Shown here piece after piece: positions 10,836-48,878 of a DNA stretch of 64,000 nucleotides. The number at the start of each line of letters is the position of its first letter. Position 1 is the first letter of the stretch. A program made the position numbers and the translations under genes. Origin of the DNA: a virus (Duplodnaviria > Caudoviricetes); the IMG/VR virus record IMGVR_UViG_3300037067_009230, positions 1-64,000 of that record. One strand, 5' to 3'. Below the pieces are notes generated by a model, which made no database searches, had not been told where the DNA came from, and saw only the letters and a program-made list of their open reading frames with translations.

Positions 10836-12152
10836 CTAAGCAGCAATTCCCGTAGTATCAATATAGAAGGAGCTCAAAGGATTATTAAACTGGATACTCA
10901 ACATCCCCTGAATCCACCATTCTTTGAAATCATTAATAGATCCATTAACCCCTTTAGGATTAGTCTCACCAGCTTCAATAGGAGCATATCCAGTCATACA
11001 AACAGGCTGAATAGTATCCAGATCAAGAACAAATAGTCTATTCTTGAAATCAGCAGGGAAACAAGATAATTCCTTAAATAACTCTACAGCCACAGGAACA
11101 AATCTCATATCTCCAATCTTATATTCATAAAGGTTAAGATCAGCAATCCTACTCTCAGGAGCATAACGAACACCAGCTTCTTTCCAAACCTTTGACAACT
11201 CATAAAGAAGAACATTCTGGGCAAATATGAATCGTACCCCACCCTCTGATTTATAATCTGTCTGGAAGCACAAAGCCTCAAATACCTCTTTAAGAGTTGC
11301 AGAAGTAACACCAGAACTATTAGCACATCCGGCAGCTACCATAAGCGGAAATATACCACCCATAGTCTTAGCTTTATAATCCACAGAAGCACCCGGAACC
11401 CTTACATTAGCCTCACCACGTTCACCATTCCACAGAGAGATAAACATATCCTGAAGCAAAAGATCCATTTGTTCTTTCTTATCAAGATCATAATAATTAG
11501 TGGTACCATTGTTTGCAAACTTCTGCATTTCCATCCTTGTCCATCTCTTATCACGTTCCATCAACTGGATATAATTGTACCTTTCAATCTTGGACATACG
11601 ATCGTAATGCGTGAGGAAATTCTGACCATCAGCTATAACACTACCCTGAATTGAAAGATAATCATTAGCAGCAAGAGCCGGAAGATTTGCCTGACCATTA
11701 AGAGGAATAAGAGTAAGAGTATCAGTTGAAATAGATTGAACAATAGCTTTCCTGTTATTAGGATAAACAACAATCTTATTCGGAGTGACATTCTTTCCAC
11801 CACCTGTGGTAAGAGTCACAGTTGCAGTAGCACCACCAGCAGCACCAGAACCAGAATCACGAAGAGCAGTTCTTCCGAAAGTTTTCTCCATATAAGTGAA
11901 AACATCATCTGATTTATATTGAACTGGTTTCTCAAACAAAAGACGCAAACTCTTGTATTTAGCAGGAGCAGCATCAAAAATAGTCTCAGAAATAGCTCTT
12001 TTGAGGAGACTCGTAGTACCCAGAGTAAACTCAGTAGCATACTCAGATCCAATAGGATTTAAATCCCTTGAAGTAGGACTTTGAACAACAGCAGGCTGTG
12101 CCGGATTTGGAACAGCCACGTAAGCATTTGAAGTATTAAATTGATCAGCCAT
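10836..12152 (-). CDS. Major capsid protein (crAss-like, HK97 fold)
   Basis: 438 aa; located after portal and scaffold, followed by a strong terminator; RYNY.Q and TMGGI motifs. Confidence 0.8.
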   Translation of the reverse strand: MADQFNTSNAYVAVPNPAQPAVVQSPTSRDLNPIGSEYATEFTLGTTSLLKRAISETIFDAAPAKYKSLRLLFEKPVQYKSDDVFTYMEKTFGRTALRDSGSGAAGGATATVTLTTGGGKNVTPNKIVVYPNNRKAIVQSISTDTLTLIPLNGQANLPALAANDYLSIQGSVIADGQNFLTHYDRMSKIERYNYIQLMERDKRWTRMEMQKFANNGTTNYYDLDKKEQMDLLLQDMFISLWNGERGEANVRVPGASVDYKAKTMGGIFPLMVAAGCANSSGVTSATLKEVFEALCFQTDYKSEGGVRFIFAQNVLLYELSKVWKEAGVRYAPESRIADLNLYEYKIGDMRFVPVAVELFKELSCFPADFKNRLFVLDLDTIQPVCMTGYAPIEAGETNPKGVNGSINDFKEWWIQGMLSIQFNNPLSSFYIDTTGIAA

Positions 12153-24717: not shown

Positions 24718-25038
24718 ATGTGTGACGGAAATTTAGCAATGGCAGAAACTTTGAATAACGCAGAACCAACCCAATTGGGTATAGGTGCAGTTAGCAGTAG
24801 TGCTTTTGTTAATAGAGAAGGTATTGTTTTGAAAGTTGGTATGAAAGTAAAAGGATTTATTACATATCAACGCTCATATATGAGAACTGGTGACAAAGAC
24901 ATCACTGGTACTATTGTAAGCAAACATGGGAGATTGTATGTAAATAGCGATTCTGAACCCGAAAAGAACTATCCACTTTCAAAATTTGCTCACAATTGGC
25001 TAACTCAAAATAAAATTGCATGGTTGGATGTTCTTTAG
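24718..25038 (+). CDS. Cassette-borne hypothetical protein (array 1)
   Basis: 106 aa; reads through a half attC-like arm (QLGIGAVSS); stops just before the next attC-like site. Confidence 0.7.
   Translation: MCDGNLAMAETLNNAEPTQLGIGAVSSSAFVNREGIVLKVGMKVKGFITYQRSYMRTGDKDITGTIVSKHGRLYVNSDSEPEKNYPLSKFAHNWLTQNKIAWLDVL
24770..24796. mobile_element. Half attC-like site
   Basis: CCCAATTGGGTATAGGTGCAGTTAGCA, near-identical to one arm of the 40314 site; partner arm absent. Confidence 0.6.
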
Positions 25039-25044
25039 CATTGC

Positions 25045-25138
25045 ACCTAACGGACAGCGGTAAGAGTAGGCCGCTTTGTAGACTGCTCAAATTTAGTAAC
25101 AGCCTTTCTGCGGTATGCTTTATGACCGCTTGTTAGGC
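25045..25138. mobile_element. attC-like site (array 1)
   Basis: ACCTAAC...imperfect inverted repeat...GTTAGGC. Confidence 0.75.
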
Positions 25139-25153
25139 ACAGTACATTTTATT

Positions 25154-25429
25154 ATGATTTCAATTAAAAAAGCAGATTGGACAAAGAAAAGAGAATACTC
25201 AAAAGAAATGAAACTTGATGGATTTATTTCTTCCGTAGAATTAAGCGGAATGCACTTTACTCAGATTGATTCACTCGGAATTGATTCTCGAAAATTAGAT
25301 AATCCAAAAATACTTAAACAGAAATTTGAAGCAGATAATAATTTGCGTTGTATCTGTTTGGATTACGGAGGCAGAACTAAAAAATATTGGTACAAAGTTG
25401 GCGACTTGCGGAAGTTGTATTGTGCCTAA
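25154..25429 (+). CDS. Cassette-borne hypothetical protein (array 1)
   Basis: Bounded by GTTAGGCACA and TGTGCCTAAC (perfect complement); stop lies in the CTAAC core. Confidence 0.75.
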   Translation: MISIKKADWTKKREYSKEMKLDGFISSVELSGMHFTQIDSLGIDSRKLDNPKILKQKFEADNNLRCICLDYGGRTKKYWYKVGDLRKLYCA

Positions 25430-25483
25430 CTAGCTAGTAAACATACTAAAGGTATGTTTACTATACAAAAATCAGTAAATAAA
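25424..25483. mobile_element. attI-like anchor site, copy 1
   Basis: AAC-TAGC-TAGTAAACATAC-TAAAG-GTATGTTTACTA-TACAAAAATCAGTAAATAAA. Confidence 0.7.
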
Positions 25484-25518
25484 TACACTTTTAAGGCTAA
25501 CAAAATAATCAGGTAATT

Positions 25519-26736: not shown

Positions 26737-26760
26737 AAAATAAAATCTATAATTATTTAA

Positions 26761-26786
26761 AAAGGCTCTCATATTAGGGAGCCTTT
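26761..26786. terminator. Bidirectional terminator
   Basis: AAAGGCTCTC/GGGAGCCTTT between convergent genes. Confidence 0.75.
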
Positions 26787-26790
26787 CTTT

Positions 26791-26955
26791 TTATATCTTA
26801 TATGGAAGATAGTAGAATCGTTTCCTGACCCTTCTGGGCCCTTTTAACGAGTTCACATGCATACAGAGTATACCAGCCGCCTCTTTCTTTGTCCGGACCA
26901 CCAGAGTCTCCTTAGGGGCTTCTAAGTCAATAACAATGTGTCGTAGGTGTTTCAT
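26791..26955 (-). CDS. Small HTH/NUMOD1-like protein (54 aa)
   Basis: Hand-translated; KKEAAGILCMHVNSL helix-turn-helix pattern; ATGA overlap with the upstream gene. Confidence 0.5.
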   Translation of the reverse strand: MKHLRHIVIDLEAPKETLVVRTKKEAAGILCMHVNSLKGPRRVRKRFYYLPYKI

Positions 26956-27131
26956 TCAAACATAGCTTTATCTATTCTGGCAAACAGATCCTTCTCCTTA
27001 AGGGTATTCTTAAGACACTGCCCAAGGAGCCTACAGCTTACACAAGAGCCAAATTCCTTACTATCATCCTTATTTGCTTTACACAGGGCACAGTAGATAC
27101 TCCTGCAGGCTACGTGGATAAATTTTCTCAT
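26952..27131 (-). CDS. Small Cys-rich protein (59 aa)
   Basis: Start reassigned to MRKFIHVAC; TATCTTTG -7 element at 27153-27160 upstream. Confidence 0.55.
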   Translation of the reverse strand: MRKFIHVACRSIYCALCKANKDDSKEFGSCVSCRLLGQCLKNTLKEKDLFARIDKAMFE

Positions 27132-27159
27132 GATCTTTTTTATTGGTTTATGCAAAGAT

Positions 27160-28200
27160 AAGTAAAATTGTGTATTCTCTAAGTGGGTTTTACACATTTT
27201 CATCAAAATTATTGGGAAATATGGGTATATTTTATGTTATATAACATGTTTTTATAGGATATGTGCACATTTTCCACTTTTCTATGCGTGATGTACAGGT
27301 TATCGGGGTGGTCCCCTACCCCCTTTGTGTGTTACTGTGGAGGTTTTACACAATTTCAGGGTGAAATAGGGTCCCATATTCGGATAAAAAGGCATTTTTC
27401 TACTTAAAAAGAGGTGAGATCGGGGAATTTCCACTTTTCCATGGGTGGGGGACTATCCATCCGATTCACCCCCTGCCCTGCTCTGAGGGAAAACTCGATC
27501 CTAAAACCGCTCTCGAATACGACCGGGTCCCCTTTGTCTAATAGATTGACATACAGCAACATACGTTTCTATTTTACATAATGTTAATTATCGGACACAA
27601 ACATATTAAAACGCTTATTTTCAGGCTGTTATATGAATATTTGGGCAATATGACAGGAAACTGAGAAAATCATAGAGACATTAATAAAAGCGTAGGGGGT
27701 GCATAATCCTAATTCTATTTTTACAACTAGACAAATAATATGTTATAAAATATGTTTTACCTGCATTATATGTTATATAACATATTTTATAAATTGTAAC
27801 TGACTGATACACAGTATAAAGTAAATACCTGTAAATAATAGAGGATATAAAAGTCTTTTATTATTTATTACTTATACTATATAATAAAGGATCACTGTAA
27901 ATAATAGAGGATATAAAGATCCGAATATATTTTATTATGGCAATATAAAAATAATTGAAAATTATTACTCTCAATATCAGTAACTTATAAATAAAATGAA
28001 AATATTTTGAAAAATACCTATTAAAATATATTAATAAAGTAAAACTAAACGTCTCAAACGTTCACCCTGTGTGGTTTTGCACACGCAGAATTTTTATATT
28101 TTATTCCTTAAAAACTATGTAACTCACTGATAATCAGTCTTGACATTACATATCTTAATATTATATCTTTGCTACATGTTCTTTGACATATGAAATAAAA
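27160..28200. other. ~1-kb non-coding divergent region, candidate origin or genome-end region
   Basis: No ORF; G/C-run block at 27300-27530, then AT-rich block with 23-bp direct repeats (27829-27851, 27895-27917) and TGTTATATAACA palindromes. Confidence 0.45.
28140..28171 (+). promoter_or_regulatory. Host-type promoter for the rightward early operon
   Basis: TTG...TATCTTTG. Confidence 0.55.
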
Positions 28201-28205
28201 TATCA

Positions 28206-28246
28206 TCCCTGGCAGTTAAGCTGTGGCATTCGATCGCAACCAGGGA
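28206..28246 (+). ncRNA. Degenerate tRNA-like minihelix
   Basis: TCCCTGG/CCAGGGA stem, CAG-TTAAG-CTG hairpin, TTCGATC loop with a weak stem. Confidence 0.35.
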
Positions 28247-28278
28247 ACTAATTATTAACCACTTTAATACTTAAAAAT

Positions 28279-28506
28279 ATGAATAAAAAATTATTTGAGT
28301 CTATTATAGACAAACATAATGCAGGCATGTTTAATATCTCACGCTTAGAGTATTCGAGTGAACACGAAGAAGCAAAACAAATGCTTAATAAATTAAATAA
28401 AAAAAATTTAATTCACTTTGTTAATTATCTTACATGGTATAATGGTCAGTTATATGTAGGGATAAATGGTAAAGGCGAATTTGATTTATTTGATCTTCCA
28501 AAATAA
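28279..28506 (+). CDS. Hypothetical early protein
   Basis: 75-aa ORF preceded by the repeated intergenic motif. Confidence 0.7.
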   Translation: MNKKLFESIIDKHNAGMFNISRLEYSSEHEEAKQMLNKLNKKNLIHFVNYLTWYNGQLYVGINGKGEFDLFDLPK

Positions 28507-28533
28507 TTATTAACCACTTTAATACTTACTAAC

Positions 28534-28830
28534 ATGAAAACAATAGATTTTAAACGTATTAACAAGGACGTTAACGGAAATCCTCGTTATGTATGTCATT
28601 ATTCAGAGTTTATAACTGATAAGGATAGGGAAAATTTTCCTTACAAGCAACAAATATTTAAAGTAAATGGTTACTTAGATAATCTTTATAAAATTGCTCT
28701 AAATAGGGCTAAAACCCTTGGGGGTCGCAAATTCCACAATAAACAGTATGGCGGTGGGATTGTATTTCAATCTTATAATATCATATATTTGCAAAATAGT
28801 ATCTTTGAATTAATGAAAAAATATGAATAA
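28534..28830 (+). CDS. Hypothetical early protein
   Basis: 98 aa; DVNGNPRYV and GGGIVFQSYN motifs. Confidence 0.75.
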   Translation: MKTIDFKRINKDVNGNPRYVCHYSEFITDKDRENFPYKQQIFKVNGYLDNLYKIALNRAKTLGGRKFHNKQYGGGIVFQSYNIIYLQNSIFELMKKYE

Positions 28831-29320: not shown

Positions 29321-29450
29321 AGTTAACGTTAAATGTTTGTGCAGTTGGGGATTATAAACCACTGCACTGTCAAAATAGTACTAACTTAATAAATACAGAT
29401 TATGAGCGAATTAGCACAAGACCCCCAATTGCATAAACATATTGTTGTGC
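29321..29450. mobile_element. attC-like site (array 2)
   Basis: AGTTAAC-G...ATGTTTGTGCAGTTGGGG / CCCCAATTGCATAAACAT...GTTGTGC. Confidence 0.8.
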
Positions 29451-29704
29451 GTAGTTATTTATCATTCTTTGCAGAAAAACACAAGTGCCACATTGATAAA
29501 ATAATGGTTGGAATGGTTGGGGGTGATTTGCATGTATGGAAATACGACGAAGGCGCAGCAAATATTTTTACACAACTCGAAATCATATCCAATTTTGAGA
29601 CTGATGATAGAAAATGGATTTGTCAATTATGTGGCGAATTAGTTAACGGTAGAAATGTAACATTTGAAGAATATCACGAAGGTTGTGGTGGCCTCTGTGT
29701 ATAA
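29402..29704 (+). CDS. Cassette-borne protein with C-terminal Zn-finger-like motif (array 2)
   Basis: Starts inside the attC loop; CQLCG...H.GCGG; cassette ends GTTGTGCGTA / TACGCACAAC are complementary. Confidence 0.75.
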   Translation: MSELAQDPQLHKHIVVRSYLSFFAEKHKCHIDKIMVGMVGGDLHVWKYDEGAANIFTQLEIISNFETDDRKWICQLCGELVNGRNVTFEEYHEGCGGLCV

Positions 29705-29708
29705 TTAC

Positions 29709-29768
29709 GCACAACTAGCTAGTAAACCTACTAAAAGTATGTTTACTATACAAAAATCAGTAAATAAA
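29709..29768. mobile_element. attI-like anchor site, copy 2
   Basis: Two mismatches to copy 1 over 53 bp. Confidence 0.7.
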
Positions 29769-29783
29769 CAAAAAATTAAAGTC

Positions 29784-30337
29784 ATGAAAACAAAATTAAC
29801 AGAAGCACAGAAGCAAGCTAATAAAGAGGCTAAACGAGCTAAAATAAAAGCTGAAAAAAGATTAAAAGAATAGAAGCTGAAAAAACCCAACCAGATGTAA
29901 AGGATATTACAATTACTATTGAATGGAAAAAGTCTCGGACATGGGGCGCAAATCCACACGCAACGGCAGCCGTAAATTTTAAAGATAAAACAGCAGGCGA
30001 ATTTAAAACAGGTTTTTACCGTTCTCCTGAAGGTAATTATACTTGTTCTGGGTGTGGGTACGATAAAGAAAGTACGGTTATTGCTCAGATATTTAATGAC
30101 TTTCTGAAATACAAACTTTGGAGGCTTAGCCCTGAAAAATTAAAAGGTGGAAATGGATCCTTAGATAAAGGTCCGGCTCCATATGGAATTCATTTATATT
30201 CTGAAAATGAACCTTATTATGATGGAGGTATTGGAACAAGTTGCTATTATAATATCTCTGAATACATTGGTGGTAAATTTGAATGCATTGCAAGTGGTAA
30301 AACGTTTGATGTTTATAAATATACTGATAACGAATAA
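29784..30337 (+). pseudogene. Frameshifted hypothetical gene
   Basis: Frame stops at TTA AAA GAA TAG; the -1 frame continues RIEAEKTQPDVKDITITIEWKKS...GCGYDKEST to TAA at 30337. Confidence 0.65.
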
Positions 30338-30417
30338 AGTTTTTGCCTGTTACAAGTCAGGGATTAATACAGAGTATCCCCCAGATAAGGGGGTAATGTA
30401 ACCAAAAATTAAAAGAT

Positions 30418-30723
30418 ATGAAAACAGATAATCAAGTTACGGATGTAATTTTCCGTAAGTTTAAGGATGGAGATATAATAGCCTTATTTCCATATGAAAT
30501 TGATAATTATCATGGTGACTGTCTAAGTTATATGCATATTGGACAACATGGCGGAGCTAATTACTGGCATTGCTTAACAATAACTAAGCCAGCAATGATA
30601 AATGAATATGAGCCATTGATGCGGGAACTTATTTCTATTGGATATGAACTAAGAATAAGACAAAAAATAAATTACAAAGTGTTTTTATCTGCTATGAAAA
30701 TATTTAGAGATAAATATAATTAA
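30418..30723 (+). CDS. Hypothetical phage protein
   Basis: 101 aa; VIFRKF...IIALFP and SYMHIGQHG motifs. Confidence 0.75.
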   Translation: MKTDNQVTDVIFRKFKDGDIIALFPYEIDNYHGDCLSYMHIGQHGGANYWHCLTITKPAMINEYEPLMRELISIGYELRIRQKINYKVFLSAMKIFRDKYN

Positions 30724-37572: not shown

Positions 37573-38039
37573 AATACCTTATTTATGAAATAATGTTTCC
37601 AAAGTCTTTCCTGCTCTGTCTTATCACCACTGGTCTTAATCCAGTATAGTAAAGATAGGAAAAAATTATTCTTCCAACCCCCATTTTTATCAAACCATTT
37701 TTTAAACTCCTTTGTCTCATTCTCTTCCTTTACTTTTTTCTTACTATTCTTTTCCATTTCAAGTATTTTACTAACTTGGTCAGAAAAAGCAGCACCCCGA
37801 AGAGTAAATGGTCTATTTTTTGATTTGTTAAACTCTTTACATTCGGCTATCCACATATTACGATACTTAGTAAATAGTGCATCGGCTTCTTCACCTTCAG
37901 TATCCTTTAAATCGGACCGGTAAGTAAAAAATAAATTTATAAGTGTGGTAAGAGTCTCCTGTTTCTTTGCTCTTAATCTTCTAACAAATCTGGGATCTTT
38001 CTCCTTAGTTTCGTTTTGAACAACCTTTTTCTTTTCCAT
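37569..38039 (-). CDS. Hypothetical basic protein
   Basis: 156-aa ORF in an operon. Confidence 0.7.
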   Translation of the reverse strand: MEKKKVVQNETKEKDPRFVRRLRAKKQETLTTLINLFFTYRSDLKDTEGEEADALFTKYRNMWIAECKEFNKSKNRPFTLRGAAFSDQVSKILEMEKNSKKKVKEENETKEFKKWFDKNGGWKNNFFLSLLYWIKTSGDKTEQERLWKHYFINKVL

Positions 38040-39985
38040 TAGTTTAAAATTAAATTGTTATTTTCTTTAGTAAAATTTATTGTATTAGCATATAAGTTAT
38101 CCAGAGTACTGGAATGAGATATTACATAAACACTCTTTCCTTCATCGGCTTTCATCCTAATTAAATCAAATACAGCATTTTCACCATCCTCATCCAAACC
38201 ATCAAAAACTTCATCCATAATTAATAGGTTGATATCTGTATTAATTGAAATGAGATCGTACATCGCAAAAATTAAAACGATATCTAATCTTTGCTTCTCA
38301 CCCCCTGAAAATTCTTTATAGTCTTTATTTAATTTATCCCCTAAAGAGCATATTGTCGTAAAAGGCTTGCTAGATTTCGTTAAATCAATTGCAAATTCAA
38401 TTGATATTCCAAGCCGTTCTCCATATTTGCGTGTATTCTCGTTAAGCTGGGCCAGCATAGCGTTAAAAATAAATGCTTTTATTCCACTGGCACCAAATCC
38501 CTTCTCAGACCACCATTTTATTATTTTAATCTCTTCTTGTAAATCCGTGATATTACTATTAAGTGATTCAGATTTAATCTTCATTAAAGTAATTGCTTTC
38601 CCCTGTGATGCTATATTAAAATCTGGAGCCTTTTCATTCTGTAAAGATTTTAACCTAATCTTTTCATTTTCTAATAGGACTATCTCAAATAGGGTATTTT
38701 CAATGTTATTAAGTTCTTGATATCTGGCAGCAACTACATTGTATCTATCATTTGTGGTAGTAATATCGTTTTTAACTCTTTTAATCCCTTCTGTGACATC
38801 ATCTAAAGCCTGTGTTAATTGAAGTAATTTATTATTTAACTCAAGTATCTGAGTATTTAAATCTTCAATCTCAGCCTCAGCCTCTTTGTTAGCAGTCGAA
38901 TAAATCTTTTCAATATTTGCATGATTAGTTTGATTAATAGCCTGATGACATACAGGGCATAATCCTTTTACAATAGATTCTTTAACAATACCTTTATTTT
39001 CCTCAATCTCTTTCTTAATTTGATTTATTCTAGCAGTAAACTGGTTAATTCTATAATTATTATTATCAATCTCAGACTGAATACGTTTCTGGTCATTATC
39101 AATCTCTACCAAATCCAATCGATACTTATTCTTGGTACTAGTGAGTTCATTATATTCCTGTTCAATCTTATCATGTTCTTCTTTGTCATAATCAAGAGGA
39201 GGAACAACTACTTTTAACTCATTATTATAATTAGTAATAAGAGTTTCAAAACCCTTAATATTTGATTCACAGTCTGAAATCTTATTAGCCTGATTCTGAC
39301 CCCACTCCTCACAAAGACGTTTATCCCGAACAAGGGTAGCCTCTGCCATAGTAATCTGAGAATTAAGGGTATCAGCCTCAGATATGATCTTACTAAGATT
39401 TTGATTCTTCTCAGTAAGATCCAGTTCGGCTTTATGCTTACAGATATTAACCCACTCTACATCAAATAATTGCTCAAACAAGGCTCTCTTATCTTTATTA
39501 TCCTGAGTGATTAATCGGGCCATCCTTTGACCAAACATTACAGAGTTCATAAATGTCTTAGGATCAGTGCCAAGGAGTTTATTAATTCTTTCCTGAGTTT
39601 CATCTTTATTAATTCCTGGGAAAAGTTGTTCATTATTTTTCCAGAGCATGAGTGAATCATTACCCTTTAAACCGTTAGTATCTCCCTTATAATCCAAATG
39701 ACGAGCAATGGAGTAATCTTCTCCATCTACTTCAAAATACGTTATTACTCTGGTTCCTTTCCAATTTGAGGGTCTTATCTCTTCCCATGAAGCGACTTTA
39801 TCCTGATTAGTTTCTTTTAAGTTTGTACCAAATAAACACCATACCACAGATTCAAATAATGTTGTTTTTTTAGTACCATTAACACCTTTAATAAGATTTA
39901 ATCCGGGACGGTCAAGATCAAATATTAATTGATTGACGATACCACGGAAACCATCTATTATTGCTTGTTGAAATTTAATTTTCAT
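38039..39985 (-). CDS. sbcC: SbcC/Rad50-like ATPase
   Basis: GVNGTKKTT Walker A variant, CPVC zinc hook, FSGGE signature, MDEVFDGLD, SH. Confidence 0.9.
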   Translation of the reverse strand: MKIKFQQAIIDGFRGIVNQLIFDLDRPGLNLIKGVNGTKKTTLFESVVWCLFGTNLKETNQDKVASWEEIRPSNWKGTRVITYFEVDGEDYSIARHLDYKGDTNGLKGNDSLMLWKNNEQLFPGINKDETQERINKLLGTDPKTFMNSVMFGQRMARLITQDNKDKRALFEQLFDVEWVNICKHKAELDLTEKNQNLSKIISEADTLNSQITMAEATLVRDKRLCEEWGQNQANKISDCESNIKGFETLITNYNNELKVVVPPLDYDKEEHDKIEQEYNELTSTKNKYRLDLVEIDNDQKRIQSEIDNNNYRINQFTARINQIKKEIEENKGIVKESIVKGLCPVCHQAINQTNHANIEKIYSTANKEAEAEIEDLNTQILELNNKLLQLTQALDDVTEGIKRVKNDITTTNDRYNVVAARYQELNNIENTLFEIVLLENEKIRLKSLQNEKAPDFNIASQGKAITLMKIKSESLNSNITDLQEEIKIIKWWSEKGFGASGIKAFIFNAMLAQLNENTRKYGERLGISIEFAIDLTKSSKPFTTICSLGDKLNKDYKEFSGGEKQRLDIVLIFAMYDLISINTDINLLIMDEVFDGLDEDGENAVFDLIRMKADEGKSVYVISHSSTLDNLYANTINFTKENNNLILN

Positions 39986-40011
39986 TTTATTAATAATTAA
40001 TAAAAAGTGTG

Positions 40012-40071
40012 TTTATTTACTGATTTTTGTATAGTAAACATACTAAAGGTGTGTTTACTAGCTAGTTAGCA
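40012..40071. mobile_element. attI-like anchor site, copy 3
   Basis: Reverse complement of copy 1, with the 5-nt hairpin loop inverted; G|TT core at 40065-40067. Confidence 0.7.
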
Positions 40072-40374
40072 GCCATTTTTAAGGAAGTCTGGTAGCTTCT
40101 CATAACATTCACTTAAAAATAATGGTCTGTCTTTGTAATGCTTTCGTAACTTCAAGAGCATATTTCTTTGATATTCCACCTGTTTAACAAAGTCATTGTA
40201 TTCGGTTTCTGTAAGTTCATTTTGTCCTTCTTTTCTAAAGAATTTATTGTAGAAATAAACAAGTGAATCTTTGCACTTTTGAAGTTCCTCTTGGTCAGCA
40301 GATAATAAACGGCTGCTAACCGCATCTATACCCAATTGGGTAGTTTCTGAGGTATTCAAATTTTTGTGTTCCAT
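40066..40374 (-). CDS. Cassette 1 hypothetical protein
   Basis: Probable start MEHKNL inside the attC loop; reads QLGIDAVSSR through the arm; stop in the CTAAC core. Confidence 0.7.
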   Translation of the reverse strand: MEHKNLNTSETTQLGIDAVSSRLLSADQEELQKCKDSLVYFYNKFFRKEGQNELTETEYNDFVKQVEYQRNMLLKLRKHYKDRPLFLSECYEKLPDFLKNGC

Positions 40375-40448
40375 TGTTACTTTATTTTTTAAGTTGATAA
40401 TTTTGTGTTTCAAATTGCCCAACTGGGCATAGCTGCAACACGTTAGGT
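40314..40448. mobile_element. attC-like site 3.1
   Basis: CTGCTAAC...CTATACCCAATTGGG / CCCAACTGGGCATAG...CGTTAGG. Confidence 0.8.
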
Positions 40449-40474
40449 TTAATAATTACCCCTACGCACCGGGA

Positions 40475-40645
40475 CTAATTACTATCAGGATCGTATGTTT
40501 TATATTTCCATCCTAACCATGCCATTCGTCCAAATTTCTTATCCAGTTCTAAATCAATGTGGGCCATTGACCAATTCTTACTGATTTCAAATTCCTCTGA
40601 TGACCCATTTTCTAATTCTACAATTATTGTTCTCATTTGTCGCAT
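40475..40645 (-). CDS. Cassette 2 protein (56 aa)
   Basis: Hand-translated MRQMRTIIVELENGSSEEFEISKNW...; below the ORF-track cutoff. Confidence 0.6.
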   Translation of the reverse strand: MRQMRTIIVELENGSSEEFEISKNWSMAHIDLELDKKFGRMAWLGWKYKTYDPDSN

Positions 40646-40684
40646 AATTAATTTCGTTATCTGATCTCTTCTGTAATTACTGAA

Positions 40685-40738
40685 ATCTAACTACGTGTAA
40701 AATTCATTGAAACGAAATTTTACACCTGTCCGTTAGCA
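40685..40738. mobile_element. attC-like site 3.2 (short, 54 bp)
   Basis: ATCTAAC-TAC-GTGTAAAATT / AATTTTACAC-CTGTCC-GTTAGCA. Confidence 0.75.
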
Positions 40739-40957
40739 AACATGCCGATAGAGGTACCCACTTTTATGAGCGCGTTCATCAACTTGTTGCATTAGTTCTT
40801 TTGCTGATTCACTTCCGTAAGGTCTGCGATATTTGACTTCTTCTGTGCCGTCTGGCCACTTTTGCACAATTTCAGTAGTTACAAAGGCACGATTTGCTAA
40901 CAATGTATTTACGCCATTGGCGGTTACATTCTCGCTGGATAAGTTATCGGTTTTCAT
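40733..40957 (-). CDS. Cassette 3 protein (74 aa)
   Basis: Start MKTDNL inside the attC loop; stop in the core. Confidence 0.7.
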   Translation of the reverse strand: MKTDNLSSENVTANGVNTLLANRAFVTTEIVQKWPDGTEEVKYRRPYGSESAKELMQQVDERAHKSGYLYRHVC

Positions 40958-41025
40958 ATATTCGTTTTTACGTTTAAAATTTGTACTAATTAATCGCCAA
41001 CAGGCGCAAATACTCACCGTTAGCG
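40895..41025. mobile_element. attC-like site 3.3
   Basis: TGCTAAC...GTATTTACGCCATTGGCG / CGCCAACAGGCGCAAATAC...CGTTAGCG. Confidence 0.8.
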
Positions 41026-41322
41026 GCAATTAAGCGATTTTATGTACTCATTAGCAACATAACTTGCTTTGCATTCATCAAACTCATTAAGTGTTGATTT
41101 GTACCATATCAAAAAATCGCTTAACAGTTCGCTTTGCCCGCTAACATCAGGTATAGTTAATTGCCTTTGCTCCGATTCATACCCGTTCGCTAAGTGCTCA
41201 GAATATTCGGTCATTAACCTAATAACAGTATCATAACTAAATGCTGTTCCTTCTTCTTGTCCGTCTGGGTAACGAACTTTCTGTGTGTACCCTTTTTCAA
41301 ATAAAAATTGATGTGCTTTCAT
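41020..41322 (-). CDS. Cassette 4 protein (100 aa), half encoded inside the attC loop
   Basis: Reads through the arm as QLTIPDVSGQ; stop in the core. Confidence 0.7.
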   Translation of the reverse strand: MKAHQFLFEKGYTQKVRYPDGQEEGTAFSYDTVIRLMTEYSEHLANGYESEQRQLTIPDVSGQSELLSDFLIWYKSTLNEFDECKASYVANEYIKSLNCR

Positions 41323-41418
41323 AATTCGCTCACTATTTAAGTTATTAAAGTTTATTACTCTTATTAAGGTTAGTAGTAATTTGACAGAGGCAACTAACCA
41401 TACCTGTGTTCGTTAGGC
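41139..41418. mobile_element. attC-like site 3.4 (giant, 280 bp)
   Basis: CGCTAAC-AT-CAGGTATAGTTAATTGCC / GGCAACTAACCATACCTG-TGTTC-GTTAGGC with a loop of over 200 nt. Confidence 0.75.
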
Positions 41419-41430
41419 ACAATAAAAAGA

Positions 41431-41640
41431 TTACGGTGTATCTCTGAAATAAGCAGTTGTGATATGATATTTTGCTTGTTCATCTTTTGGTAGTTTATGA
41501 ATTTCGTCCATAATCCTATTATACATCTCCACCTTTTTAATCTTATACTGTTTAAGTTCTTTATACCATTTTATGGCGAATGGTAGTTTAGTTATCCACC
41601 CAATTAAAATGCCTATTGCTAAAATAATACATGTACTCAT
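41431..41640 (-). CDS. Cassette 5 single-TM protein (69 aa)
   Basis: MSTCIILAIGILIGW; cores GTTAGGCACA / TGTGCCTAAC. Confidence 0.7.
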   Translation of the reverse strand: MSTCIILAIGILIGWITKLPFAIKWYKELKQYKIKKVEMYNRIMDEIHKLPKDEQAKYHITTAYFRDTP

Positions 41641-41658
41641 ATTATTAAGATTTACTGT

Positions 41659-41788
41659 GCCTAACACATGCTATAAAAAATAGCGGTTTTAGTAGTTTGC
41701 ACAAGGTTTATACTTCTATTTAATTTCACTGTATTTTGATAAATTTGTTCTTCTATTTCCGCTACTTTTCATAGCATCAACGTTAGGG
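41659..41788. mobile_element. attC-like site 3.5
   Basis: GCCTAAC...GCTATAAAAAATAGCGG / CCGCTACTTTTCATAGC...CGTTAGGG. Confidence 0.85.
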
Positions 41789-41793
41789 TGCAT

Positions 41794-42006
41794 TTAAAAA
41801 TCCTTACACCAACTATCCAACTGAAAGGATAGACTGTCATATACTATTGTTTTATTTGGTAACTTTCGCCAATTCCAATAACCTCGTGGATATTCTTCTG
41901 TTGCAATAAATTTAATTTGCTTTTTGATTAATCCAAACAAAATAGGTTGTTCGCAAGTCAAAATGATGTTACCCTTTTCGTTTGTTTCTTTTTTAATTGC
42001 TTTCAT
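41794..42006 (-). CDS. Cassette 6 protein (70 aa)
   Basis: Start MKAIKKE; cores GTTAGGGTGC / GCACCCTAAC. Confidence 0.7.
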   Translation of the reverse strand: MKAIKKETNEKGNIILTCEQPILFGLIKKQIKFIATEEYPRGYWNWRKLPNKTIVYDSLSFQLDSWCKDF

Positions 42007-42026
42007 AAAAATTGAATAAAAACGCA

Positions 42027-42156
42027 CCCTAACAATGTATATAGCAAATTGGGGGTGTCGTTCCAACTTGTATATTTGTGCTGTTAATTTACTTCTGTGT
42101 GGCTCGATAGGGTAGCACATTTTAATCCCCAACTTGCCATATACTTAACGTTAGTT
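42027..42156. mobile_element. attC-like site 3.6
   Basis: CCCTAAC...GTATATAGCAAATTGGGG / CCCCAACTTGCCATATAC...CGTTAGTT. Confidence 0.85.
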
Positions 42157-42176
42157 GCAAGGCTAAGTCCATGCAT

Positions 42177-43007
42177 TTAATCAACATTTGTGGGTAAATC
42201 CGTAAAAGAAAAAAGCCCACGCTCTTTTGCTTTTTCAAAGCAATTAGGGTTAATGTCACAACCAATAAAACTTCGGTTTAAGTCTTTACAAACTTCTGCT
42301 GTTGTAAAACTACCTGAATAAAAGTCCGCAACTAAATCACCTTCATTGCTACTTGCTTTAATAATTCGTTCAATTAATGATTTTGGTTTTTGGGTATCAT
42401 ACCCAAGTCTTTCAGAGTTAGTCGGCCCTAAATTATTCAATTCCCAAACATCATCAATAGGTGTTGAATCTTGTATTTTATAAACAACATCCCCATTTTC
42501 ATCCCTTTTCATTACCTTTTTGCCATCTTTCACATCTACCTTATTTTTCTTTCTTGGTGTTTCTAACGGTAATCTTAATTCATTAAATATTATTTTGTCG
42601 GTTTTACCATAAAATATAAGTATATCGTGGTTTTTAGCAAACGCCTTTTGTTTTATACTCCATTTATTGTAACTCCAAATAACCTCATTCACAAAATTAT
42701 CATACCCAAATATATCATCCATAATACACCGCATCCAATGGTTTATTTTTGTGTCCATTTGTAGGTAAATGCTTCCTGTTGGTTTTAATATCCTGTGCAT
42801 TTCTTTTATTCGTGGTATGTAGTGGCTTTCAATTTCGCTTCGTATTGGCTTTATATCTTGATAGTCTGCAAATCTTCTACCAGTACCATAGAGTATATCA
42901 CAATAAATTAAATCAATCGTGTTGTCTTTAATTTCTGCCATCAATTCTAAATTGTCGCAAATTCTAAGGTCTAAAAACCCCTCCCCATTTTTTTCTTTTA
43001 CTCTCAT
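42177..43007 (-). CDS. Cassette 7: beta-class N6-adenine/N4-cytosine DNA methyltransferase
   Basis: DNLELM, CDILYG (motif IV variant), TQKP..LIERII..SS.EGDLV.DFYSGS.TT (motif I), IGCD. Confidence 0.85.
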   Translation of the reverse strand: MRVKEKNGEGFLDLRICDNLELMAEIKDNTIDLIYCDILYGTGRRFADYQDIKPIRSEIESHYIPRIKEMHRILKPTGSIYLQMDTKINHWMRCIMDDIFGYDNFVNEVIWSYNKWSIKQKAFAKNHDILIFYGKTDKIIFNELRLPLETPRKKNKVDVKDGKKVMKRDENGDVVYKIQDSTPIDDVWELNNLGPTNSERLGYDTQKPKSLIERIIKASSNEGDLVADFYSGSFTTAEVCKDLNRSFIGCDINPNCFEKAKERGLFSFTDLPTNVD

Positions 43008-43048
43008 TCGTTCATTTAATTAAGTTTCTACTAATTTTACCGCCCAGC

Positions 43049-43176
43049 ATATAACAATGTATATAATTTATAGGCAGTTATGTTAATAATTCAATCTTTA
43101 TTTCTCGTTTAAAGTATGTAGGTAACTCAAAATTCGTAGCTCGAAATGCCTACAAATCATATACAAACCGTTAGCA
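43049..43176. mobile_element. attC-like site 3.7
   Basis: ATATAAC...GTATATAATTTATAGGCA / TGCCTACAAATCATATAC...CGTTAGCA. Confidence 0.85.
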
Positions 43177-43177
43177 C

Positions 43178-43378
43178 CTATTTTAAAATGAATGACTGAC
43201 AATCATCACATATAAAACTATGAGCATAAACAGATTTTAATTCGCACCATGAGCAATGACCATATGTGGCACCCGTATAGTATTTACAGTTCCCGTATTT
43301 ATAAAAAACAGGTGCTAACACAGGCTCAACTGCAATAGCTGGAGAAGTATGTTGCGTAGGTCTTACTCTTTTTGCCAT
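43178..43378 (-). CDS. Cassette 8 small Cys-rich protein
   Basis: Probable start MAKRVRP (or 43417) inside the attC loop; CKY..., CSWC, CDDC; cores GTTAGCACCT / AGGTGCTAAC. Confidence 0.65.
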   Translation of the reverse strand: MAKRVRPTQHTSPAIAVEPVLAPVFYKYGNCKYYTGATYGHCSWCELKSVYAHSFICDDCQSFILK

Positions 43379-43444
43379 GTTCGTTGTATTTTGATAATTA
43401 AGTATTTCAAATTCCACTACATGCGGTTAGCATCAACGTTAGAC
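43313..43444. mobile_element. attC-like site 3.8
   Basis: TGCTAAC...GCTCAACTGCAATAGCTGG / CCACTACATGCGGTTAGC...CGTTAGAC; more degenerate stem. Confidence 0.7.
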
Positions 43445-43831
43445 ACCTATTTCAAAAGAATAATCACTCCCATTGATAGTTTCTTTTTCATAATAATTAC
43501 ATAGTTCACCAAGGGAATAGAAAACAGGTATATTATGTTTCTTTGCAAGTGCTACCTCATCATCTGCGCCAACGCTCTCACCAGATAAACGCAGTACACA
43601 ATCACAAACTAGTAGCCATATATTATCTATAGTAATCCAATCATTGTCGGGTCTTGGCTGTACTACATTTTGAAAATGATTTAAAAGTGGTACAAAAGGC
43701 ACAAAATTTAAATTCATGAGAATATGTGCAGTATCTATCTGCCTATTTACATTTGAGATTTTATTACCCAGTGTATAAGGACTTGCGATATAAACCTTAA
43801 TTGAATCTTTAGTCATATTTGGGAAAGTCAT
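43439..43831 (-). CDS. Nucleoside 2-deoxyribosyltransferase-like (DUF4406-like) protein
   Basis: KVYIASPYT, CDCVLRL.GES.GAD.E. Confidence 0.75.
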   Translation of the reverse strand: MTFPNMTKDSIKVYIASPYTLGNKISNVNRQIDTAHILMNLNFVPFVPLLNHFQNVVQPRPDNDWITIDNIWLLVCDCVLRLSGESVGADDEVALAKKHNIPVFYSLGELCNYYEKETINGSDYSFEIGV

Positions 43832-44808
43832 TTTATTAAAATTAATCCATAGTTTAAAACCTTCTCATCTAATTTAGTGACTTCTGCATAGTTTTTTATA
43901 ATAGTCTCCGGTGCAAGGTCTGTTCTGAAATTATTTAACATTTCCTGCTGCTTAGTGGTTTTTGTATTAATGACAGGAGACCATACCACATATTGCTGTT
44001 GTTCCCACTCAGTTAACTCAGATCCCTCTTCTTTTCTAATGAACTGGGGAAATTTATCTGTGATGTCCTTAAATGATATAGTATTAGGATCATCTAAGTC
44101 TAATATCCAGAATCCCTTCCGTTTTCCAAGATCTCCGAGATCCCTATGCATAGGACTTCCGACATTAATAAACTTATCAGTTATCTCTCCACCATCATGG
44201 ACATGACCATTAAACACCATATCAAAATTATCAAATAATGAATCATCTGGTTGAATATGATCTTTCTCTGGAAAGCCAGAAGCTACCATCTGGTGCATGA
44301 GAAGATAACTTTTACCTGTAGTATATGTTTGTTTCACTTTATCCTGTAAACCACCAAGAACCTTTTTAAAATGCTCCGGATATTCAAAATATGAAATACC
44401 AAATATATGATTATTGTTATCGGTAGATAGCCGACTCATATCATTTAATAGAATGAAATTATCAAACAAAATAGCCAAATGTTGAAGGGCACTGGTAGCC
44501 GGTTGGTCTATGAGATTTTTACTTGCTTGATCATGATTACCAGAAATAGCTATAATCTTGATTAATGGATATTTCTTAAAGTTATTCTTGAAGCAGGCAA
44601 TAATAGCATCCTCAGCTTCAGTGGACATAATCTGCATCAAGTTATAAAGATCCCCCGGCAATAAGATATATTTTATTTCATTTACACTTGCAAAATTAAA
44701 CAGGTAATCAAGATATGCAATTCCATTATTTAACCTGCGGTTATCCTGATTGAATTTCTGATATTTATGCACGTGGATATCTGACGTAACAATAGCTAAT
44801 TCACTCAT
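43828..44808 (-). CDS. sbcD: SbcD/Mre11-like nuclease
   Basis: SDIHVH, PGDLY, GNHD, MHQ, NGHVH. Confidence 0.9.
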   Translation of the reverse strand: MSELAIVTSDIHVHKYQKFNQDNRRLNNGIAYLDYLFNFASVNEIKYILLPGDLYNLMQIMSTEAEDAIIACFKNNFKKYPLIKIIAISGNHDQASKNLIDQPATSALQHLAILFDNFILLNDMSRLSTDNNNHIFGISYFEYPEHFKKVLGGLQDKVKQTYTTGKSYLLMHQMVASGFPEKDHIQPDDSLFDNFDMVFNGHVHDGGEITDKFINVGSPMHRDLGDLGKRKGFWILDLDDPNTISFKDITDKFPQFIRKEEGSELTEWEQQQYVVWSPVINTKTTKQQEMLNNFRTDLAPETIIKNYAEVTKLDEKVLNYGLILIK

Positions 44809-46403: not shown

Positions 46404-48878
46404 CTAATTTATTAGATACGGAGATACACTTTTCCAATTTTTTTTACTTGTTTCAAATTCTACTTTTATAGGTAAAGAATCTATTTCTTTATAGAAATAC
46501 TTTTTTAATGGAAGTTTCTCCATCGTTTCCCGAATAATTATTATAGATTCATCTAAGATACTGTCGGGAACATAAAAGTAAATTGCATCATGTATCTCAT
46601 TTACAATCAATATTTTTGGATCTAATCTATTGGACAATAAAGTCAAAGCCCATATTGTTAACTCTCCCCCGGTTCCTTGGATAGGGGAATTTATGGCGTT
46701 ACGTTCGGCATGACTCCTAACACCCTCATTTATACTATCTATGTCTGGAAGATGAACCTTTCTTCCAAAAAAAGTACGCACGTATTTAAATTTTTTACCT
46801 TTCTCTTTATATAACTTATGATAAGTTAAAAGATTTGGGTATTTCTTAAAATAGGCTTCTCTTCTTTTCTTAGCTTCATTAAGTGAAATATTTAAATTAT
46901 ATGTTGTTCTGGCATATTCTCTAAACCCCTCAGGTGAAATCCCATAAATGAACCCAAAATTCTCTGCCTTCGCTTCGAATCGGTACTGCTTATATAAGTC
47001 ATGATCTATTACTTTAAACTCATCCAATGTATACCCATGAGAGTTAGCAGCTGTAATCTCATGAAGATCCTGATTATTTCTGTATGCATCAATCATTGCA
47101 GTTTCTTGTGCATAATGAGCAATAAGTCGTAACTCCATTTGTGAATAATCCGCTGATACAAGTGTGTATCCCTCAGGTACAGTAAATGATTGTTTTACGA
47201 GAGATACTGAATCCTCAACTACTTTATATTTTGTCCGGGTAATAATATTTTGCAGATTAGGTTTATCTGAACTAAGCCTGCCAGTTTTAGCAACGTGCTG
47301 ATTAAAATTAGTATGGATAAAATGATTCTCATCAAGTTTATTAAGGATACTCTCCAAATAAGTACTAACTAATTTCTTTAATTGCCTATAAACCATTAAT
47401 TGTTCAATAAATCCAGATTTATCATTAATAAGACTTAGATTATCTGCCCCAGTTGAATCGTCTGAGTTACCATAATGATTCTCAGGTTTTTTAAAATTAA
47501 AACCTTCTTTTGAAAAGAATAATTCCTTTAACTGATCAGGGCTATTAAAATTAATACTTTGACTTTCAACAGTTATTGTACCTGATTTAAATCCCGATAT
47601 TTGATTCTCTAATTCTGTTATTTTTCTTTGATTATTAGTTTGAGCAGTTTTACTCTTAAATTCTGCATTTTGACACTTTTCCAATTTTGCCACCAAATTA
47701 TTGATAGTGTCTATCCTAAATTGTTCTGTTTTAAACATATCAAATTTTGTAACAGCGGTATGCATTCTCATAATACTTTCTTGATCCTCAATAAGTTCTT
47801 CAACATTACGAATAGATTCTGTAATAAAATCTTTATCTACTAACATCCCCGTCTCCTCCACTTTAAAGAATGCCTTTGTAGCAGCAGCGGTAAGATTCCG
47901 ATACATAAGATAAAGATGATCATCCTTTAAAAGAATATCAGTTAATACCCAATATAATCTAAATGTAAGATCTGAATCCAGTGCATTATATCTGGCCAAA
48001 TCATTTAAAGGTATATTAGCCCAATCTTTTGTAATAGCCTTTTCATAATTAGCAAACCGTGGAAAAAAGTCACGTACTATATCTTTTAATTTATGTGATA
48101 AATTCTCATCATAGAGTTGATGCATTAGCATAGTATCATGAAATGGTCCTCTAAATTCGGTTACACCACACCATGCCAAACAATGCATATCAAATTTAAT
48201 ATGATGACCCACTTTAGTTATATTCGGATTACCAAATACCCTTTTATTTAACTCATGAAAAATAAATTTTATTTGGGTATCACTAAAAGGACTTTCCTTA
48301 TGATATAAAGGTATCACATAACTGGAACCCTGCTGAAAACTAATAGATAAGGAAGTGCAATAAAAGTCCGGATCAAATGTACCCATATCAGTAAGTTCAG
48401 TAGTCTCAAAATCAAAGCAGCAATAACCCGTTTGTTTTATATAAAGTATAAGTTCGGCCAATGTTACCATATCTGTCACAACCTTATACTGATTTTCTAC
48501 TTCCTCCTTCTTTATACCCATAGAGATATGATAAGCTACAAGCATATCCTCGGCAAATTTTCTAAGATAATTAGGATTATGATCTATAAATCCGGGAGAA
48601 ACTATTGGAACTACCGGTATTCCAGATGGTGCGGTTTGAACAGTCCCTGCATATTTAGTAATGCCATGTAGGTTTGCTATGTAATTAAGGGATTTTTCCC
48701 CAATAGGAACAATCACATCCGCTTCTGTAATCTTAAGAAGGGGATTTAAATCTACTATCTGAACATTGGCCGGATCTATCTTAACTACATCATACATCAC
48801 ACTCTCAAGTAATTTATAACTTGCAGAGCCGGGATATAATGTCTTTTCCTTAATTAGAACTATCTTTCCGTCTTGCAT
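46404..48878 (-). CDS. polA: Family A DNA polymerase with N-terminal UDG-like and 3'-5' exonuclease domains
   Basis: DFETT, GHHIKFD, YNALD exonuclease motifs; TGRLSS..PNLQNI, ADYSQMELR, AK..NFG..YG, NEIHDAI. Confidence 0.95.
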   Translation of the reverse strand: MQDGKIVLIKEKTLYPGSASYKLLESVMYDVVKIDPANVQIVDLNPLLKITEADVIVPIGEKSLNYIANLHGITKYAGTVQTAPSGIPVVPIVSPGFIDHNPNYLRKFAEDMLVAYHISMGIKKEEVENQYKVVTDMVTLAELILYIKQTGYCCFDFETTELTDMGTFDPDFYCTSLSISFQQGSSYVIPLYHKESPFSDTQIKFIFHELNKRVFGNPNITKVGHHIKFDMHCLAWCGVTEFRGPFHDTMLMHQLYDENLSHKLKDIVRDFFPRFANYEKAITKDWANIPLNDLARYNALDSDLTFRLYWVLTDILLKDDHLYLMYRNLTAAATKAFFKVEETGMLVDKDFITESIRNVEELIEDQESIMRMHTAVTKFDMFKTEQFRIDTINNLVAKLEKCQNAEFKSKTAQTNNQRKITELENQISGFKSGTITVESQSINFNSPDQLKELFFSKEGFNFKKPENHYGNSDDSTGADNLSLINDKSGFIEQLMVYRQLKKLVSTYLESILNKLDENHFIHTNFNQHVAKTGRLSSDKPNLQNIITRTKYKVVEDSVSLVKQSFTVPEGYTLVSADYSQMELRLIAHYAQETAMIDAYRNNQDLHEITAANSHGYTLDEFKVIDHDLYKQYRFEAKAENFGFIYGISPEGFREYARTTYNLNISLNEAKKRREAYFKKYPNLLTYHKLYKEKGKKFKYVRTFFGRKVHLPDIDSINEGVRSHAERNAINSPIQGTGGELTIWALTLLSNRLDPKILIVNEIHDAIYFYVPDSILDESIIIIRETMEKLPLKKYFYKEIDSLPIKVEFETSKKNWKSVSPYLIN

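Follow-up and report, generated by a model that had tools for sequence, protein, structure and literature searches.

A probable integron-type cassette array without an integrase in the replication operon of a Flavobacterium-type phage

We analyzed the first 64 kb (here called the window) of a 76,155-bp virus record from IMG/VR (IMGVR_UViG_3300037067_009230), which is rated linear and 92% complete and belongs to a Flavobacterium-type phage. Inside a minus-strand operon for replication and repair, between a DUF7768 gene and the gene for an SbcC-like ATPase (sbcC), lie eight minus-strand genes; seven encode proteins of 56 to 102 amino acids (aa) and one encodes an N6/N4 DNA methyltransferase. This region (40066-43438) is best read, with a probability of about 0.75, as an integrase-less array of integron-type cassettes similar to the clusters of attC sites lacking integron integrases (CALINs), with sites of a class that is common to Flavobacteriaceae chromosomes and their phages.

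End pairing, site family, and polarity

The + strand motif CGTTAG occurs 10 times in the window, and 8 of these copies lie within 40441-43442. A script that paired GTTAG and the extension following it with the reverse complement of that extension followed by CTAAC found six units, at 40065/40316, 40732/40897, 41019/41141, 41412/41661, 41782/42029, and 43170/43315. In these units the 3 to 5 bases after GTTAG exactly complement the bases preceding the downstream CTAAC, and on the gene strand the pairing goes on through a G.T pair and 3 to 4 A/T pairs, reaching 14 to 15 bp in four units. When the start of every unit was compared with its own end, 54 of 80 positions were identical, versus 26 on average when all 40,320 permutations were scored. 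The true assignment ranked best, and none of the others reached 54, which bears out an earlier note, made from the sequence alone, that had described eight small genes bounded by integron-like cores with ends complementary within each unit. Each start core is complementary to the inverse core of its own unit rather than to that of its neighbor, and complementarity of the flanks across a single hairpin was not seen in the array. The observation of cassette-like units is confirmed, far above chance.

The ends of unit 2, for which the note gave one mismatch, pair over ~18 nucleotides (nt) with one mismatch and one indel. The methyltransferase unit, which the note said does not match, matches in part, with cores GTTAT versus CTAAC and 6 of 9 extension bases agreeing. 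We considered GTTAGTTGCC at 41388-41397 as the lost partner of the methyltransferase unit's end, but it belongs to cassette 4, where it forms the 5' arm of the 276-nt site (cassettes are numbered as in Table 1), and for that reason the idea that cassettes 5 and 6 were inserted into an older site was dropped. Pairs of CTAAC...GTTAG at 71.7-72.4 kb of the genome were rejected as chance matches within coding sequence.

Read on the gene strand, a site begins with CTAACG, continues with 3 to 5 unpaired bases, a stem of ~18 to 19 bp in which two G.T pairs are conserved, and a loop of 10 to 215 nt, and ends with (T/G)GTTAG; the typical length is ~125 nt and the maximum is 276 nt. Seven of the eight intergenic elements fold alike as single-stranded DNA, with a 5-bp core pairing, an asymmetric internal loop, a stem, and a loop. 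The site at 43315-43442 departs from this shape, and its minimum-energy fold is poor (z, -0.07); its 3' core is doubled on the + strand (43426 and 43438). A CALIN has two or more attC-type sites, imperfect hairpins with an inverse core RYYYAAC and a core GTTRRRY; the array has eight such sites, with cores CTAAC or ATAAC and GTTAG or GTTAT. The hairpins contain no T-runs and are not terminator-like.

We aligned 18 sites from four phage lineages (this window, the 38.8-kb metagenomic contig L010, Flavobacterium phage mumin6-1 [L008], and L015) and built a covariance model, R1, from the alignment. Paired cells amounted to 88.9% versus 68.4% in shuffles, and the covariation score was 0.456 versus 0.143 in shuffles and 0.08 to 0.16 with the partners slid. 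Three G.T pairs keep their position in the alignment, on the folding strand. R1 recovered sites outside its training set (29323-29448, with 62.1 bits; 43315-43442; and 40687-40736), and with filters off it matched the gene strand only; for the site at 42029-42154, the minus-strand score was 86.8 bits and the plus-strand score was 10 bits. The palindromes, which the earlier note had called unrelated, therefore form one covarying structural family, and the custom covariance model that it had proposed as a check finds members beyond those used to build it. No Rfam family matches the hairpins.

Published bottom strands of the attC of aadA7 and of P12002L_attC1 start and finish like the gene-strand sites (Qi et al. 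2023, PMC9892861, Table S3). Because of this match, we took the + strand of the window as the "top" strand and placed the genes on the bottom strand, which is also the one strand on which R1 finds the folded form. Judged by these site ends, the orientation of the genes is the reverse of that of ordinary integron cassettes: instead of an open reading frame (ORF) on the top strand with its site at the 3' end, all eight genes lie on the bottom (R1-sense) strand, and each cassette has its site at the 5' end of the gene. On the + strand a cassette thus runs from TTAG and its extension through the gene (on the other strand), the reverse complement of the extension, CTAAC, and the hairpin and stops at the G that precedes the following TTAG. 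Crossover is expected on the top strand at G|TT, which coincides with the stop-codon region (CTAA|C) of each gene, and the TAA stop codon of most genes falls within CTAAC. In cassettes 1, 3, 4, and 8 the start codon is located in the loop of the site. The canonical model, in which the site downstream of a gene belongs to that gene, was rejected because the sites have the polarity of published bottom strands; the joining of three array ends to anchors at CTAA|C and the position of Muminvirus junctions on the antisense strand (both described below) also counter it.

The window has two further arrays, small ones built in the same way and located on the + strand (24746-25430 and 29323-29712), and the total for the genome is 8 + 2 + 1 cassettes. 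Directly after the last cassette core of each of the three arrays comes an element of ~65 nt, here called an anchor, which includes a hairpin with a 12-bp stem and whose three copies are ~90% alike (40003-40069 on the - strand and 25426-25492 and 29713-29770 on the + strand). All three arrays meet their anchors at CTAA|C. The anchors may be attI-like cassette entry sites; their position corresponds to the variable first-cassette site of Muminvirus phages and to the recombinase-proximal array end in other phages.

Related phages, Flavobacteriaceae chromosomes, and their recombinases

Relatives with an SbcD protein 72 to 76% identical to that of this phage came from the protein database; a single-protein search of viral contigs for SbcD relatives found nothing. 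In two of these relatives (L005 and L003) sbcD overlaps or adjoins sbcC, and in a third (L006) an endonuclease VII gene alone stands between them. No R1 site is present at these three sbcD-sbcC loci. The array is an insertion, and the empty junction that the earlier note had proposed to look for exists in these phages. The DUF7768 gene is missing from the relatives whose sbcD and sbcC adjoin. The endonuclease VII gene (PF02945; L006 10975-11418) is represented in L003 by a 48-nt remnant (10979-11026) that retains the first 12 codons and the last bases; it is a second, unrelated type of insertion at the sbcD-sbcC junction.

The cassettes themselves occur elsewhere. The cassette 1 protein has 59 homologues (62 to 82%) in other contexts; homologues are found on unrelated backbones, and one is present as an identical protein in two different phage backbones. 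In five contexts of cassette 1, DNA homology extends from the GTTAG core to the CTAAC core and ends exactly there. At the DNA level, the methyltransferase gene of cassette 7 is 70 to 78% identical to methyltransferase genes in phages of Flavobacterium, Polaribacter, and Cellulophaga, and its homologues in L008 (mumin6-1), L018, and L023 are likewise bounded by R1 sites. We also noted cassette genes that are mosaic at the core. The gene at L015 6001-6381 has a cassette 4-like head (..GQSELLS..) and a cassette 1-like body, and the window gene at 24718-25038 has a 20-residue head and GTTAGCAG core as in cassette 1 and an unrelated body.

In the cultured Flavobacterium phages of Muminvirus and Hattifnattvirus, shared pieces are 99.6 to 100% identical, and the content and order of the cassettes differ. 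Phage mumin6-3 lacks exactly one hairpin-plus-gene unit, and the junction has only 7 nt (AACGTTA) in common with both parental sites. The phages filifjonk, tooticki, and hattifnatt each have a different first cassette at ..GTAG|TTAT; filifjonk has an extra 1.5-kb insertion at ..AACG|TTAG, and the order of modules differs in hattifnatt. Almost all breakpoints in these phages fall at the G|TT core on the strand antisense to the genes. Cassette units are gained and lost in phages of both groups with a G|TT crossover, and the junctions are polar. The methyltransferase content of Muminvirus phages has been linked to plating efficiency on different hosts, and the description of these phages does not mention integron, hairpin, or cassette (Nilsson et al. 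2020, PMC7077304).

R1 sites (E ≤ 1e-6) were found in 92 of 151 sampled Flavobacteriaceae genomes, in arrays that reach ~65 kb and also as dispersed single sites. A gene for a tyrosine recombinase of 376 to 410 aa stands at one end of arrays in G144, G142, G084 (twice), G096, and G001, always in the same relative orientation. In the bacterial arrays whose ORFs were listed (L032, L033, L034, L040, and L041) the cassette ORFs have the canonical orientation, antisense to the strand that R1 matches, and the recombinase gene is co-oriented with the cassettes. The ends of bacterial units pair as in the phage, and in phage and bacterial arrays alike the pairing with the unit's own core includes covarying core variants (GTTAT/ATAAC, GTTAC/GTAAC, and GTTGT/ACAAC). 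The cargo of L032-L034 (hydrolases, a GNAT acetyltransferase, an Imm11 immunity protein, and an AAA_21 + RloB pair) is typical of chromosomal integrons. Two Flavobacteriaceae genomes have a conserved ..CACATACG|TT.. junction adjoining the recombinase gene.

With an alignment of three enzymes as the query, 226 relatives of the recombinase were found in viral contigs (a single-protein query gave no result). R1 sites are present at 45 of the 80 fetched phage loci that encode such a relative. There are 175 sites at those loci; 174 are on the recombinase strand, and ~171 are upstream of the recombinase gene, in many cases with no more than a few hundred bases in between. Since R1 arrays stand beside phage recombinase genes, complete phage versions exist, and the array in the window is a recombinase-less one. 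The same hairpins next to a tyrosine recombinase, which the earlier note had proposed to search for in Bacteroidota genomes, exist in both Flavobacteriaceae chromosomes and phage contigs. By sequence, the enzyme resembles IntI without being a canonical member, and any action of it on these sites is putative.

Points against and competing explanations

Several findings weigh against the interpretation as an integron-type array. The record, at 92% completeness, has no match to Phage_integrase, Resolvase, or Y1_Tnp, and no integrase gene adjoins the array as it does in a complete integron; mumin6-1 and P12002L, whose genomes are complete, likewise encode no tyrosine recombinase. The best family for the associated recombinase is the integron integrase TIGR02249, with 223 bits versus a cut-off of 265, and a XerA-like archaeal protein is matched equally well. 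The enzyme does not have the IntI-specific extra domain, and it aligns to VchIntIA in two pieces, with ~40 residues of the region 183-242 missing; this region holds the residues that bind the extrahelical bases. Exact-pattern scans of viral contigs found no copy of the anchor in other genomes, and the metagenome anchor scan gave two matches, neither with R1 sites and one (L043) unrelated. These viral-contig and metagenome scans also found no close relative of this phage with a different cassette set, and for this reason cassette turnover is deduced from phages of other groups. In Muminvirus, one class of breakpoints is located at the other core. Homologous cassettes (75 to 80% identity) have no recognizable hairpins in common, and unrelated genes are flanked by homologous hairpins; the evidence for the cassette boundaries in the window is therefore polarity together with the junctions seen in Muminvirus. 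Finally, P12002L_attC1, a site of the reversed type, was the only one without a verified junction in the work of Qi et al. 2023 (PMC9892861). The interpretation in the earlier note is thus supported in part, as far as an integron-type array is concerned; capture and shuffling of cassettes by this phage itself are hypothetical, given that it has no tyrosine or serine recombinase and no Y1 transposase and that no close relative with a different cassette set was found.

If the region is an integron-type array, the bottom strand, which is the coding strand of the cassette genes, would fold in single-stranded form while the phage replicates. Strands would be exchanged at G|TT by a short IntI/Xer-like tyrosine recombinase that either the host or a co-infecting phage provides in trans, and cassettes would leave as circles and enter at the attI-like anchor beside sbcC. 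The seven small proteins are plausibly host-takeover or counter-defense proteins, and the methyltransferase is predicted to be restriction-evading cargo. A wider proposal is that Flavobacteriaceae and their phages share an integron-like system, largely missed by standard tools, that has a short Xer-like recombinase without the IntI-specific region and long attC-like sites with positioned G.T pairs. The phages would keep a separate, polarity-reversed cassette pool with translation starts in the sites, and virulent phages without a recombinase would borrow the enzyme of the host or of a co-infecting phage to load cassettes at attI-like anchors before core operons. We give this proposal slightly less than even odds.

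An unlikely but not negligible alternative is that the array was built in an ancestor or donor phage that had a recombinase and is now a static relic, with the hairpins kept for the ribosome-binding sites, start codons, and N-terminal codons that they hold. The lack of a recombinase in this genome and the start codons within four sites would agree with this, as would several sites with apparent signs of decay: 43315-43442 has a doubled core and folds poorly, 24746-24797 is an orphan half-site, and the ends of the methyltransferase unit are mismatched. Yet six of the eight units retain near-perfect end pairing, which would have no purpose in a static array, and three conserved anchors have been maintained. 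In addition, Muminvirus phages, which have no recombinase either, still show clean cassette differences at >99.6% identity.

It is quite improbable that the hairpins are regulatory RNA or DNA elements (for processing, translational control, or weak termination) between early genes, with modules swapped by homologous recombination at the short cores. The model for this would be the PeSLs of T4-type phages, promoter-plus-stem-loop repeats reportedly described by Arbiol and colleagues in 2010 and proposed to act through homologous recombination. The sites here are on the sense strand and are therefore transcribed, the G.T pairs would be G.U pairs in RNA, and the loops hold ribosome-binding sites and start codons. 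In the bacterial arrays, however, the same strand-specific, G.T-bearing structure is antisense to the genes. Because the structure is antisense to genes in bacteria and sense in phages, selection acts on one DNA strand and not on the mRNA, and this is the strongest argument against a purely RNA-level role. A regulatory function would also leave unexplained the end pairing across each gene, the polar breakpoints at one core, and the fixed association with a tyrosine recombinase gene, and, as noted above, T-runs are lacking. As with PeSLs, repeated stem-loops stand between small early genes in hyperplastic regions, and the genes are proposed to shuffle as modules; what distinguishes the sites here is their integron-type cores, junctions that are polar at G|TT, the pairing of unit ends across genes, and the link to a tyrosine recombinase family.

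That the hairpins are palindromes like miniature inverted-repeat transposable elements or repetitive extragenic palindromes, inserted between preexisting genes, is very improbable despite the dispersed single copies in Flavobacteriaceae chromosomes, because insertion would create neither complementary gene flanks nor the covarying cores (GTTAT/ATAAC, GTTAC/GTAAC, and GTTGT/ACAAC), no Y1 transposase is present, and the gains and losses observed are of gene plus hairpin, never of a hairpin alone.

Features of the window and comparison with known systems

The coordinates of the cassettes, anchors, and flanking genes are collected in Table 1. The neighboring gene that had been labeled DUF4406 has DUF7768 as its Pfam match. 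Neither PHROGs nor Pfam assigned a function to the seven small proteins of the eight-cassette array or to the three that arrays B and C encode.

TABLE 1 Cassettes, anchors, and flanking genes in the window and R1 arrays in Flavobacteriaceae chromosomes. Bits are scores with covariance model R1; z is the fold z value.
Feature	Position	Strand	Gene	Site or other details
Cassette 1	40066-40442	-	40066-40374 (102 aa)	40316-40446 (131 nt); 88 bits; z, -2.6
Cassette 2	40443-40732	-	40475-40645 (56 aa)	40687-40736 (short, 50 nt); 26.6 bits, E 0.003; z, -2.8
Cassette 3	40733-41019	-	40733-40957 (74 aa)	40897-41023 (127 nt); 85.2 bits; folds
Cassette 4	41020-41412	-	41020-41322 (100 aa)	41141-41416 (276 nt); R1 does not span the site
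Cassette 5	41413-41782	-	41431-41640 (69 aa, one predicted membrane helix)	41661-41786; 102 bits
Cassette 6	41783-42150	-	41794-42006 (70 aa)	42029-42154; 86.8 bits (minus strand)
Cassette 7	42151-43170	-	42177-43007 (276 aa, N6/N4 DNA methyltransferase; Pfam PF01555, 1e-45)	43051-43174; core ATAAC
Cassette 8	43171-43438	-	43178-43378 (66 aa, Cys-rich)	43315-43442; 53.4 bits
Anchor A (putative attI-like array end)	40003-40065	-		C-TAGCTAG, hairpin with 12-bp stem, conserved A-rich tail after the CTAA of the last cassette
Array B	24746-25492	+	25115-25429 (cassette gene)	25047-25136 (90 nt); anchor B, 25426-25492
Array C	29323-29770	+	29402-29704 (cassette gene)	29323-29448 (cores TTAAC/GTTGT); anchor C, 29713-29770
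SbcC-like ATPase (sbcC)	38039-39985			Start at 39985
DUF7768 gene (backbone side)	43439-43831	-		Pfam PF24963; stop codon within the outermost core
SbcD-like nuclease (sbcD)	43828-44808			Flanking gene
Family A DNA polymerase	46404-48878			Flanking gene
Chromosomal arrays	G144:C1 1942585-1983616; G142:C1 82496-152458; G084:C6 1648-13989 (L040); L034

The loop and 3' arm of the cassette 1 site hold the start codon and 18 codons. In cassette 4, the loop of >200 nt contains the first ~60 codons, and the site is closed by a terminal stem of ~23 bp that includes an 18-bp pairing of the arms with two G.T pairs five bases apart. The ends of cassette 5 (13 to 14 nt) are identical to those of an unrelated cassette at 25132-25430, both arms of the cassette 6 site are homologous to the site at 29323-29448, and the 5' arm of the cassette 8 site has 15 nt in common with the site at 41661-41786. 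Array B includes an orphan 3' arm with a leader (24746-24797) on the gene at 24718-25038, and its 90-nt site scores only 11.6 bits with R1. The ends of the array C cassette pair over 10 nt.

Where ORFs 30183-30401 and 30418-30723 meet, positions 30339-30409 (+ strand) match the type-P3 twister ribozyme over its full length (Rfam RF03154; 51.9 bits versus a gathering threshold of 39.9; E, 8e-9). A stretch of ~1.5 kb (26740-28240) that separates gene blocks of opposite orientation has no convincing ORF; it includes a locally GC-rich part (27270-27560) and three palindromic ATATGTTATATAACAT-type repeats (27229-27252, 27735-27758, and 27765-27788) and has no Rfam match, and its role may be that of an origin or of a regulatory region. 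Immediately 5' of two consecutive small genes stand the copies of a 61-nt direct repeat (77% identity; 28246-28306 and 28501-28561), which looks like a promoter- or leader-type element, not one of the hairpin type.

Small integrase-less CALINs in phages are already known. Qi et al. 2023 (Front Microbiol 14:1091391, PMC9892861) reported 17 of them, with 2 to 4 sites per phage, including one in Polaribacter phage P12002L, and in E. coli IntI1 recombined P12002L_attC2. The statement that such a platform is not well described in Bacteroidota phages was therefore overstated, as the P12002L CALIN carries a homologous methyltransferase gene. The array in the window resembles these CALINs in its CTAAC/GTTAG attC-type cores, in residing in a phage without an integrase, and in its N6_N4 DNA methyltransferase cargo (the P12002L gene, in Table S4 of that work, is a homologue of 42177-43007); P12002L_attC1 is on the sense strand right after the methyltransferase gene, as the sites are here. 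It differs in having 8 + 2 + 1 cassettes, all of reversed polarity and with start codons in sites, and in its long sites (~125 nt, up to 276 nt) and three conserved anchors. The Muminvirus phages, Flavobacterium phages with at least six sites, are missing from the lists of Qi et al.

Several features recall classical integrons. The sites are single-strand folds in which the R box is paired and the spacer is not, followed by an L stem and a loop that varies; G|TT is the expected crossover point; the first bases of a cassette pair with its own inverse core; the sites of an array are homologous and the genes unrelated; and, in Muminvirus, the first position is variable. Unlike in classical integrons, the associated recombinase is without the VchIntIA 183-242 region and falls below the TIGR02249 cut-off, the G.T pairs are conserved, the end pairing extends over 10 to 15 bp, the phage genes are on the bottom strand, and the recombinase gene of the bacterial arrays is co-oriented with the cassettes. 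The distinguishing marks of this array are the reversed polarity, the start codons in sites, the long sites with positioned G.T pairs, the three anchors, and the association of its site class with a noncanonical recombinase family. Almost no integrons were reported in Bacteroidetes with IntegronFinder 2.0 (PMC9024848), and in the literature we found no description of Flavobacteriaceae chromosomal integrons or of these phage arrays.

These results place the logic of integrons in virulent-type phages of an abundant family of aquatic bacteria and point to chromosomal cassette arrays in Flavobacteriaceae. Integrons are known chiefly as bacterial collectors of resistance and defense genes. For hyperplastic early regions in phage genomes, cassette arrays offer a concrete mechanism, and cultured phage-host pairs suited to its study exist. 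The reversed polarity suggests that one enzyme can serve both the phage and the host cassette pool while neither side expresses the genes of the other.

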